64,000 nucleotides of DNA. Source: a virus. Its lineage: Duplodnaviria > Caudoviricetes. The stretch lies in the IMG/VR virus record IMGVR_UViG_3300023714_000001. One strand, given 5' to 3'. Positions 7,536-13,398 of this stretch are shown here, in pieces. A program made the translations under genes and the position numbers. The notes below the pieces were generated by a model. That model was not told the origin of the DNA. It was given only the letters and a program-made list of their open reading frames with translations, and did not search any database. The first letter of the stretch is position 1. Every line of letters begins with the position of its first letter.

Positions 7536-7611
7536 TGGCTCCCCGAGCAGGACTCGAACCTGCGACATATGGATTAACAGTCCACCGTTCTACCGGCTGA
7601 ACTATCGGGGA
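7536..7611 (-). tRNA. tRNA-Asn(GUU)
   Basis: Canonical cloverleaf, loop CTGTTAA, G73, CCA. Confidence 0.95.
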
Positions 7612-7997
7612 AGAGTGTAGGCAGTTATGTCTTACCCAGGACCTATCCTATTTCCCTCCGGTAACTGACGGATTTTTGGTAACGGAGTGGCCGGATAGTG
7701 GCCGTTGCTTTTGTCGCCGACTGTCTGGGTCTAACAACAATATATCTAATCCCTTTACAGGGGATTATTCAGAGTTACTGCATTTGGTACAGAAAGGAGA
7801 AAAGATGATACCACGCTGCAGTGGGCGTTATCGTATATGTTTGGCCACTAACCAGACGTTAACCTGGTATTGGGCATAAGCGGGCGGCCGTCAATTTTAA
7901 TGTCCCTCGACCGCGAAGGACACCGCTTTCGCGGCACTACATGTAGTGTTTTGCCCGGACCGGTTGATCAGACCTGTTACCAGACAAATATTAGCTA

Positions 7998-12154: not shown

Positions 12155-12445
12155 TTACTCCCCGACTTCTCCCCAAAGAGTCTCGTAATCGTCAACACTC
12201 ATGTGAACTTCAGCCCACGCTTTAGCTTCTTCTTCGGTGCAGGGCCTGATATACCCTTCGGAATAAGGTGTACGAGCGCCGCCAAACCGGTAAATAAAAT
12301 ATTCTCCGGTTTTCTTCCGATACAGCTTTGATTCTTCAAAGTCAAAGTCTGTACGGGCTAAAATATCTCCTCCAATATTGTTGTCATACCCCAGTTCTTT
12401 TGCCGTATCCGTATCATACTTTTTGCCGCCAATAATCTTTTTCAC
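12155..12445 (-). CDS. phage hypothetical protein (KKIIxGKKYDTxTA type)
   Basis: GTG start, AGGAGG RBS; N-terminus familiar from Bacillota phages. Confidence 0.7.
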   Translation of the reverse strand: MKKIIGGKKYDTDTAKELGYDNNIGGDILARTDFDFEESKLYRKKTGEYFIYRFGGARTPYSEGYIRPCTEEEAKAWAEVHMSVDDYETLWGEVGE

Positions 12446-12507
12446 GACTAACTCCTCCTTTTGTGCACTTCTTTAATCTATTCTAGTGTAACCTTTGGGA
12501 TTCCTGC

Positions 12508-12536
12508 TAGACAAGAAGAAAAATATTTGCTACTAT
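12508..12536 (+). promoter_or_regulatory. sigma-A promoter of the solitary-repeat sRNA
   Basis: TAGACA-17bp-TACTAT with extended -10 TG. Confidence 0.65.
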
Positions 12537-12561
12537 TAAGGCATCAACCATCACGGTTGTT

Positions 12562-12596
12562 GTCTCCCAGTATGAAGACTGGGAGTGGATTGAAAT
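12562..12596 (+). CRISPR. solitary type I-C-like CRISPR repeat unit (not an array)
   Basis: GTCTCCCAGTATGAAGACTGGGAGTGGATTGAAAT: GTC start, hairpin, GTGGATTGAAAT 3' end typical of I-C repeats; only one copy seen. Confidence 0.7.
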
Positions 12597-12627
12597 ATTT
12601 TCTTTTTTTATTACCTAACACGCAGCT

Positions 12628-12650
12628 GGCCGCCTTCGGGCGGCCTTTTG
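12628..12650 (+). terminator. intrinsic terminator
   Basis: GGCCGCC-TTCG-GGCGGCC-TTTT. Confidence 0.75.
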
Positions 12651-12759
12651 CGTTGCTCTGATTTTTTTCAGATTCTCTCAGGTTCTACCGTAAAGACATC
12701 ATTCAGAATCGCCTGTATGACAAAATAATGAGTTTGGCTATCCTTCCCATGAGAGTTTT

Positions 12760-13398
12760 TCAATCCATAGCGCCAAAATAATAGCTCTCATTCTCCACGG
12801 AATATTCTGCTCCAAATGCAATATCTTCCTGCCAGCAGCTAAACCAGCCGTCTTTCTTAAGCAGAGGCGTATATGCCTGCTTGAGTTTTATCATATCATC
12901 TTGCATACCTTTTCCATAATATGGCCAGATATCCATATAGATGGTATCGTAACGTTCTGCTGCGTGGGTAGCCGGATAATTGAATACGTCATCCTGTATG
13001 ATATGGACATGTGGCGCAGAGATATTCAATAGTTCGATTATCTGCTTGCCAATCAATTCGATGACATCCGACTCCTTTTCGATAATGCAGATGGATTTTA
13101 CGCTTGGATTTCGCTGTAACGCGAACGGTATCATGCCAAGTCCCAGGCCGCCAATTAAAACATCTCCATAGGCGTTTAGAATCTCTTGATTGCTTTCGCG
13201 TTCCATGGGCGTATCACTCATCATGAGTTGCCCATTTACACTGAGCACCATATATTCTTCGCCAATTTCCATATGGTCGTAGAATCTGGCTCGGAAATCA
13301 CATGCGTTAACCTTGTATTTTTCCAAACAAGCCTTGCCATAACAGGACGAGTTAAGGATATCAGCCATAACAGGAAAATTGTTTTTCCAACGAACCAT
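12760..13398 (-). CDS. SAM-dependent methyltransferase (spermidine-synthase-like fold)
   Basis: VLIGGLGLG motif I, IIEKE, YDTIYMDIW. Confidence 0.75.
   Translation of the reverse strand: MVRWKNNFPVMADILNSSCYGKACLEKYKVNACDFRARFYDHMEIGEEYMVLSVNGQLMMSDTPMERESNQEILNAYGDVLIGGLGLGMIPFALQRNPSVKSICIIEKESDVIELIGKQIIELLNISAPHVHIIQDDVFNYPATHAAERYDTIYMDIWPYYGKGMQDDMIKLKQAYTPLLKKDGWFSCWQEDIAFGAEYSVENESYYFGAMD

Follow-up and report, generated by a model that had tools for sequence, protein, structure and literature searches.

A solitary type I-C CRISPR repeat behind its own promoter in a phage genome raises the question of whether the RNA made from it only occupies the Cas proteins of a host or also directs them to a target. 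The locus studied here lies in a 64,000-nt stretch of viral DNA (hereafter the window), which corresponds to bases 3911–67910 of a 211,158-bp record. An initial annotation had described it as a candidate RNA anti-CRISPR that would either titrate Cascade or direct it to AT-rich DNA, for instance a cas promoter.

Cas-regulating RNAs (CreR) have been described at type I and V-A loci (bioRxiv 10.1101/2023.03.10.532045; Shmakov et al., 10.1101/2023.03.03.530964). Their viral, crRNA-like counterparts, the RNA anti-CRISPRs that repress Cas or CreT (Cracr), were shown experimentally for types V-A, I-E and I-F, and type I-C candidates were listed (bioRxiv 10.1101/2024.10.29.618823). The same work describes the mechanism and the viral build, which consists of a single repeat (psiR), a guide-like segment (psiS) and a rho-independent terminator, for I-C as well; CracrVA1 is an example with a single psiR, and I-C Cracr arrays are reported for Neisseria sicca loci. 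RacrIC1, from a Bifidobacterium prophage, is a solitary I-C repeat that acts as a decoy (Camara-Wilpert et al. 2023, PMC10651486), and Liu et al. part Racrs from Cracrs by the target-matching spacer (bioRxiv 10.1101/2024.10.29.618823).

Genomic context of the unit

The carrier is a linear IMG/VR virus record of 211,158 bp with an estimated completeness of 90% and 43.7% G+C, in which ARAGORN found 14 tRNA genes, one of them a suppressor, and a tmRNA. The suppressor tRNA (G000:C1:2575-2667), about 1.2 kb ahead of the window start, has the anticodon UUA and reads UAA, which hints at stop-codon reassignment or read-through in part of the phage genome. The features of the window used below are as follows.

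1830–2226: tmRNA, tag DEAEYRLAA (ARAGORN)
12155–12445, minus strand: 96-aa gene of no known function; a MKKIIGGKxYDTDTAKE... family in several viral contigs
12508–12653, plus strand: the whole unit (promoter, leader hairpin, one I-C repeat, 31-nt psiS, terminator)
12508–12536, plus strand: promoter TAGACA-17-TACTAT, sigma-70-type, −35 box at 12508–12513 and −10 box at 12531–12536 with TG ahead of it (promoter scan)
12545–12559, plus strand: leader hairpin CAACC-ATCAC-GGTTG (fold)
12562–12596, plus strand: psiR, single type I-C repeat GTCTCCCAGTATGAAGACTGGGAGTGGATTGAAAT, 35 nt, made of GT, an 8-bp stem, a 6-nt loop and an 11-nt handle
12564–12571 with 12578–12585, plus strand: psiR stem, 8 bp
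12586–12596, plus strand: handle TGGATTGAAAT, 11 nt
12597–12627, plus strand: psiS, 31-nt guide-like segment ATTTTCTTTTTTTATTACC, seed at 12597–12615
12628–12634 with 12639–12645, plus strand: inner stem of the terminator, GGCCGCC-TTCG-GGCGGCC, then TTTT (U-run; terminator scan)
12620–12625 with 12648–12653, plus strand: outer stem, which lengthens the terminator (fold); whole element 12620–12653

The genes around the unit are all on the minus strand and encode a Mor-like HTH protein, an NrdG-like radical-SAM activase, several small ORFs, a methyltransferase and a HAD-domain protein. The unit occupies a 314-bp gap between the 96-aa ORF on one side and the methyltransferase gene (12760–13398; no relatives in IMG/VR) on the other. 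Since it lies on the plus strand between two minus-strand genes, it is counter-oriented, as the initial annotation had stated. That annotation had also reported the absence of cas genes. This holds for Cas5d and Cas7, which matched nothing anywhere in the 211-kb record; the search for Csd1 (Cas8c) was likewise silent in the record, but as it also matched none of the control genomes its silence is uninformative. By the Cas5d and Cas7 searches the unit is encoded on the virus outside any CRISPR-cas locus, as Cracrs are. A CreR stands inside a CRISPR-cas locus beside the promoter that it represses, and the phage locus contains neither cas genes nor the target site described below.

Structure of the RNA unit

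Transcription is predicted to start near 12543. The RNA from 12543 to 12655 folds with −43.7 kcal/mol (z = −5.5), and none of 200 shuffled sequences folded equally well. In this fold, the handle and the first 23 nt of psiS are single-stranded, and the terminator has the position that a normal crRNA gives to its 3' repeat hairpin. In type I-C systems, Cas5c cuts at the base of the repeat hairpin, which places the expected cut between 12585 and 12586; this cleavage would remove the leader hairpin. The elements that the initial annotation had read from the sequence (the promoter, a leader hairpin, placed there at 12540–12564, the 31-nt segment at 12597–12627 and a UUCG terminator hairpin) all stand at the positions given there.

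The claim of a single repeat also proved correct, for the window and for the whole phage. The repeat occurs once in the window at up to 3 mismatches (0/100 shuffled sequences match), and the 12-nt handle motif occurs once in the 211,158-bp record, where two other GATTGAAAY sites have no adjacent hairpin. An array or mini-array has at least two repeats flanking a spacer; here a single repeat is found in 211 kb, with a terminator hairpin in place of the 3' repeat. Two small metatranscriptome libraries (runs X3 and X4) yielded contigs that span the unit and have ends at 12506–12529; these lack strand and transcript-end information, possibly come from DNA or antisense mRNA, and so do not prove a transcript.

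A homologous unit and its target in the Selenomonas ruminantium type I-C locus

A metagenome scan with the handle and the shared start of psiS led to a contig (L146) carrying a third unit, besides those of the phage and of plasmid pSRC4 (see below). Behind its promoter (TAGACA-17-TATTCT) come a degenerate hairpin, then CGGATTGAAAT, then 31 nt of psiS and a terminator, and the unit sits between the Cas3 gene and the start of the Cas5c gene (Pfam, TIGR01876). The same Cas3 protein is encoded on a 52-kb chromosomal contig (L147, GCA_002373045.1) with the order ATP synthase operon, PBECR4 nuclease, cas3, unit, cas5c, cas8c, cas7, 32 repeats GTCGCTCCCTTCACGGGGAGCGTGGATTGAAAT, cas4, cas1, cas2, in which the unit is counter-oriented between cas3 and cas5c. 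The NCBI name for this Cas3 and for the neighbouring AtpD is Selenomonas ruminantium. A second contig matched by the scan (L145) was rejected as a chance match with no hairpin ahead of its handle-like motif.

On the strand of the host unit, 33 nt upstream of the cas5c ATG, lies a target consisting of TTC, the I-C PAM, followed by ATTTTATTTTTATATTA. The host psiS matches it at positions 1–17 except 6 and 12. The promoter on the cas strand, TTGAAA-17-TATAAT, has 11 of 12 consensus matches and abuts the divergent promoter of the unit, and the target begins 2 nt past its −10 box. A degenerate form of the target, TTCAYTTTNTTTTTNTATTA, has a single match in this 2.5-Mb genome, which is the cas5c-promoter site. 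In 200 other genomes of the family the same pattern has two matches (reversed control, 0), both in intergenic AT-rich DNA where neither a repeat-like unit nor a cas context is visible. Only one species-representative genome, together with metagenome contigs of the same locus, contained the exact target, and the 200 other family genomes lack it, which counts against reading the phage unit as a Cracr.

These searches bear on whether the phage RNA might send the Cascade of the host not to the cas5c promoter but to some non-cas host gene or the promoter of a CreT-like toxin. Cracrs of type I-F that silence CreT toxins exist, and the two further matches in other Selenomonadaceae genomes would offer such sites. 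However, in the genome with the homologous CreR the cas5c-promoter site is the sole match, the stretch from the unit to cas5c contains no small ORF resembling a toxin, and the other two matches are not beside any repeat-like unit. We consider redirection of this kind highly improbable.

One close relative differs at this site. In genome G114 (L171, G114:C13, upstream of 159697), Cas5c is 98% identical to that of the S. ruminantium locus, cas3 runs straight into cas5c, and the locus has no CreR-like unit, internal promoter or target site. The regulatory module is thus polymorphic among close relatives.

Comparison of the phage guide with the host guide and target

In an alignment, the phage and host units have in common the TAGACA −35 box, the 17-nt spacing, much of the promoter and the handle. 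Their psiS segments are identical at 15 of the first 17 nt, differing at positions 6 and 12, and are unrelated from position 18 on. Liu et al. require at least 9 PAM-proximal psiS nucleotides in common with a host CreR or CreA for a Cracr, and the phage unit exceeds this number. When the pSRC4 guide is included, the three segments agree over positions 1–17 except at 2, 6 and 12 and are again unrelated from 18.

The phage psiS pairs with the S. ruminantium site at positions 1–5, 7–11, 13–17 and 19, giving 16 bp next to the TTC PAM; within positions 1–19 the only mismatches are at 6 (12602), 12 (12608) and 18 (12614), and the distal part is unrelated to the target. All pairing positions within 1–17 are occupied (15/15), and none of 20,000 shuffled sequences reached the observed seed. 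In type I guides, every sixth base is flipped out by Cascade. The natural variation among the guides reads almost like a mutagenesis experiment in which the pairing positions are fixed and every sixth position is free. The psiS of a Cracr is partially complementary to a cas (or creT) promoter flanked by the cognate PAM, and the phage psiS agrees with this. The next-closest locus (genome G180) agrees with the phage psiS at 13/15 positions and other loci match poorly, while the pSRC4 guide agrees at 14/15 with both the S. ruminantium-clade genome G001 and G180. The phage itself contains no PAM-flanked psiS target, since the sole match of the 17-nt pattern is the unit, with AAT at the PAM position. 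The proposal in the initial annotation of a guide to an AT-rich target such as a cas promoter is therefore supported at the sequence level, and the PAM-adjacent match near host cas genes that it suggested looking for is this site ahead of cas5c.

The same comparison weighs against a pure decoy of the Racr type, in which the repeat would soak up Cas5c and Cas7 in aberrant complexes and the 31 nt would carry no targeting information. Solitary I-C repeat units on phages are known, RacrIC1 inhibits I-C interference (PMC10651486), and the phage psiR is a strong canonical hairpin with its handle. The Cracr model, too, includes competition for Cas proteins, so this effect may co-exist with targeting. 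However, a decoy needs neither a seed that equals the host CreR seed wherever pairing occurs and varies at 2, 6, 12 and 18 only, nor a match to a TTC-flanked cas promoter site, nor the conservation of psiS in relatives whose psiR stem changes. A decoy without targeting is therefore unlikely.

The distal part of psiS is relevant to another possibility, namely that the unit is a single-spacer interference guide against competing mobile elements, or for superinfection exclusion, with a full-length protospacer elsewhere. Viral mini-arrays against other viruses are documented (cited in 10.1101/2023.03.03.530964). The distal psiS, on the other hand, has no match in IMG/VR, GenBank phages, PLSDB plasmids or the phage itself, and in the homologous units conservation ends with the first 17 nt, followed by complete divergence. 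We therefore give this possibility very little weight.

CreR-type modules in Selenomonadales

A close Cas5c was found in 30 of the 262 genomes of the order, and 29 loci were examined. Nine of them contain, ahead of cas5c, a counter-oriented unit made of a hairpin, GGATTGAAAT, 25–31 nt and a terminator. For every one of these units (9/9), the best seed match of its own psiS is a TTC site 28–37 nt upstream of the cas5c start, with contiguous seeds of 8–17 positions (shuffle frequency ≤0.0005). Inside these seeds, agreement at positions 6, 12 and 18 is seen in only 5 of 20 cases, the number expected at random; the other seed positions agree by construction. Agreement at the random level is expected if the flipped-out bases do not pair. 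The self-targeting layout and the sixth-position signature together identify the nine units as I-C CreR-type autoregulators. All host CreR-like units end in a strong hairpin about 25–31 nt past the handle, and their psiR hairpin stems diverge freely from the array repeats of the same genomes.

Relatives of the unit on mobile elements

Plasmid pSRC4 of S. ruminantium TAM6421 (NC_017069.1), which IMG/VR classifies as viral, carries a unit of like build with a leader hairpin, a short psiR GTCAGGCTTCGGCCTG, the handle TGGATTGAAAC, 33 nt and a terminator. The leader hairpins are analogous and differ in sequence (CCGCC-GAATA-GGCGG on pSRC4; CGCC-GAACA-GGCG in the phage relative of run X5), and the host chromosomal units have none. 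In related phages from sheep metagenome and gut metagenome contigs, 12577–12654 is nearly unchanged. For the relative in run X5, there are 3 differences in the 78 nt of 12577–12654, against 18 differences and 5 indels in 116 nt of one flank and 28 differences in 199 nt of the other, so that the flanks are 14–20% different. The upper psiR stem of the phage relatives is changed with the hairpin kept, and their leader hairpin also differs. For the relatives in runs X5 and X6, a single psiS change is listed, at position 18 (12614). GenBank phages and PLSDB, searched with the unit by BLAST, returned terminator-like noise only.

These relatives help to judge whether the unit is a passively acquired fragment of the host cas3-cas5c intergenic region with no function in the phage. 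Its promoter, handle and seed evidently come from a CreR unit of the host type, which speaks for this reading. However, the RNA gene alone is present, without the adjacent target and cas5c promoter; neither its promoter nor its terminator is damaged, and the host copy has a less canonical psiR. Diverged relatives also retain the unit, with compensatory hairpin changes, and it occurs on a second mobile element, pSRC4. Passive carriage is accordingly very unlikely.

A homologue of the 96-aa protein with 64% identity is encoded next to the crRNA-like unit on pSRC4 too (L122 981-1274). The protein has no match in Pfam, PHROG or PDB sequences. Its AF2 model (pLDDT 88.5) has six strands and two helices and gave no Foldseek match in the PDB. 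The protein is a possible anti-defence candidate and a possible partner of the unit. AcrIF24 cooperates with I-F Cracrs. We regard as speculative, and rather improbable, the further idea that the RNA gene and the 96-aa gene form a mobile two-part anti-CRISPR cassette common to the jumbo phage and the phage-plasmid-like pSRC4, with the protein as a new, cooperating I-C Acr. If this were true, the loss of the CreR-promoter module in G114 would represent a counter-move of the host.

Another viral record (IMGVR_UViG_3300045988_027597; L130 11990-12224) contains an array with the I-C repeat of S. ruminantium in at least 4 identical copies, and its second spacer starts with ATTTTGTTTTT, the first 11 nt of the host CreR seed. 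This could be a Cracr-type array or a host fragment.

Repeat type and host of the phage

The psiR hairpin and handle belong to a defined subtype, I-C, as in Cracrs: an 8-bp hairpin is followed by TGGATTGAAAT. Rfam gave a weak CRISPR-DR9 match for psiR, below the gathering threshold (19.9 bits, E 0.33), and a scan for the exact repeat with a free loop found nothing in IMG/VR or in 185,579 species genomes, so psiR is not a copy of any array repeat scanned. The frame GTCTCC..GGAGTGGATTGAAAT is common to I-C arrays of Ruminococcus, Oscillospiraceae, Lachnospiraceae and other Clostridia, from which the inner stem of psiR departs by compensatory changes. In contrast, all Selenomonadales arrays compared are of the form GTCGC..GCG, against GTCTCC..GGGAG in the phage stem, which counts against the Cracr reading. 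Since the stem is of the Clostridia-array kind, processing by a Selenomonas Cas5c is an assumption, and it is plausible only because the hairpins of host CreRs also diverge freely from their own array repeats. The acceptance of a GTCTCC-type stem by Selenomonas Cas5c is the main uncertainty of the Cracr reading.

The initial annotation expected the repeat to suggest the host. By the repeat, the host would be sought among Clostridia, whereas the target, tRNA and tmRNA point to Selenomonas. The phage tRNA-Asn (window 7536–7612, 77 nt) shares 99% identity with tRNA genes of G001 and its closest relatives in the S. ruminantium clade and 85–94% with those of other Selenomonadales. The phage tmRNA is 75–78% identical to those of the S. 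ruminantium clade, and the comparison of tRNA and tmRNA with 61 Oscillospirales genomes gave nothing at E ≤ 1e-22. These similarities, which are independent of the unit, point to a Selenomonas host. The phage was found in animal faeces, and its relatives in sheep gut samples.

Clostridia were rejected as the target host, with the exact target in 0/49 genomes that have the GTCTCC-frame arrays and, at one mismatch, 10 matches against 10 for the reversed control. Four copies of CTC+ATTTTCTTTTTTTATTA in R. flavefaciens FD-1 (G214; L163, L166, L168, L169) are identical to the phage seed over 17 nt; these are probably a coincidence because the PAM is non-canonical and the copies lie inside a repeated element with no cas context. 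The 670 Selenomonadales I-C spacers had no match to the phage beyond chance-level partials, and 1,529 Clostridia I-C spacers and the 31 spacers of G001 had chance-level partial matches only. The results for the Selenomonadales and Clostridia sets count against the Cracr reading.

Solitary I-C repeats followed by 31–43 nt and a strong terminator were also seen in Bifidobacterium aerophilum (L025 7412-7520) and in a Ruminiclostridium MAG (L027, minus strand, ~7246-7130), and both units are built like the phage unit. In a Lachnospiraceae MAG (L080 2500-2860), a solitary I-C repeat directly follows an array with a different 36-nt repeat, GTTTGAGAGTCTTGTTAATTTCATAGGGTCTTAAGC; it was rejected as a CreR-like case, its context being unlike a cas promoter.

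Discussion

The homology to the S. ruminantium CreR and the match to the cas5c promoter make the phage unit best read as a viral CreR mimic. We estimate a probability of about three in four that it is a Cracr-type RNA anti-CRISPR and not a mere decoy, judging from sequence comparison. The unit most likely makes the CRISPR machinery of the host shut itself off.

We infer that the unit is transcribed, processed by Cas5c and used to bind DNA without cleavage, and that the resulting repression benefits the phage. A transcript of about 110 nt would be made from the phage promoter, and host Cas5c would cut it at the 3' base of the psiR hairpin, yielding an RNA with the handle UGGAUUGAAAU, the 31-nt psiS and the terminator hairpin, the last as a substitute for the 3' repeat hairpin. 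Host Cas5c, Cas8c and Cas7 would assemble on this RNA, and the complex would read the TTC PAM and form a 16-bp seed-proximal R-loop just past the −10 box of the cas5c-cas8c-cas7 promoter. As pairing would end after position 19, Cas3 would stay unlicensed and the complex would sit on the promoter as a repressor. Repression would stop new Cascade synthesis, and the RNA would also compete with genuine crRNAs for Cas proteins. Since repression leaves the Cascade already present, the benefit in a lytic cycle is uncertain, which counts against the Cracr reading.

The homology between the phage and host promoters makes it most likely that the unit was captured from an S. ruminantium-type locus and then streamlined. 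In this process the target and the cas5c promoter would have been lost, the hairpin strengthened and the leader hairpin added.

Like known Cracrs, the phage unit is viral, lies outside a cas locus and combines a single psiR with a short psiS and a rho-independent terminator; the seed is a copy of that in a host CreR and matches a PAM-flanked cas promoter with partial complementarity only. It differs in being a single-repeat I-C unit, whereas the I-C cases named in the text of bioRxiv 10.1101/2024.10.29.618823 are two-spacer arrays. It also differs in its 211-kb carrier phage and its extra 5' leader hairpin. Selenomonas, the predicted target host, is not mentioned in the main text of that paper. 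With the S. ruminantium cas3-cas5c unit, the phage unit has in common the promoter, handle and seed, and the repression logic that we propose is the same; unlike this CreR, it has neither a target nor cas genes beside it, would work in trans to benefit the phage, and has a more canonical psiR.

The name Racr, under which the initial annotation had placed the unit, fits in part. As in Racrs, a solitary I-C repeat stands behind its own promoter in an intergenic region of a mobile element and would compete for Cas proteins. However, Racrs by definition have no target-matching spacer, and the phage psiS carries a conserved seed that matches both the host CreR and its promoter target, so repeat mimicry alone does not describe the unit. 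No known acr gene lies beside the phage unit, which is a further difference, and the unit is not among the entries of the SRU table of PMC10651486 in the part that was available. 'Cracr' is the more apt name because the spacer-like part is under guide-like constraint.

The principle is already published, and the phage unit is a clean new example and not a new principle; its value thus lies in being well resolved. What it adds is the promoter homology together with the sixth-position signature, the jumbo-phage carrier and the Selenomonadales survey of CreRs and cas5c promoters. The seed match also serves to predict the host of this uncultured 211-kb phage. In the host order, a CreR-type module ahead of cas5c is now documented in about one-third of the I-C loci examined, and the concrete set of promoter, PAM and guide can be used for testing I-C autoregulation and its hijacking. 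With this unit, the silencing of cas genes by RNA would reach a jumbo phage that infects Selenomonas of rumen and gut, as well as a single-repeat I-C format.
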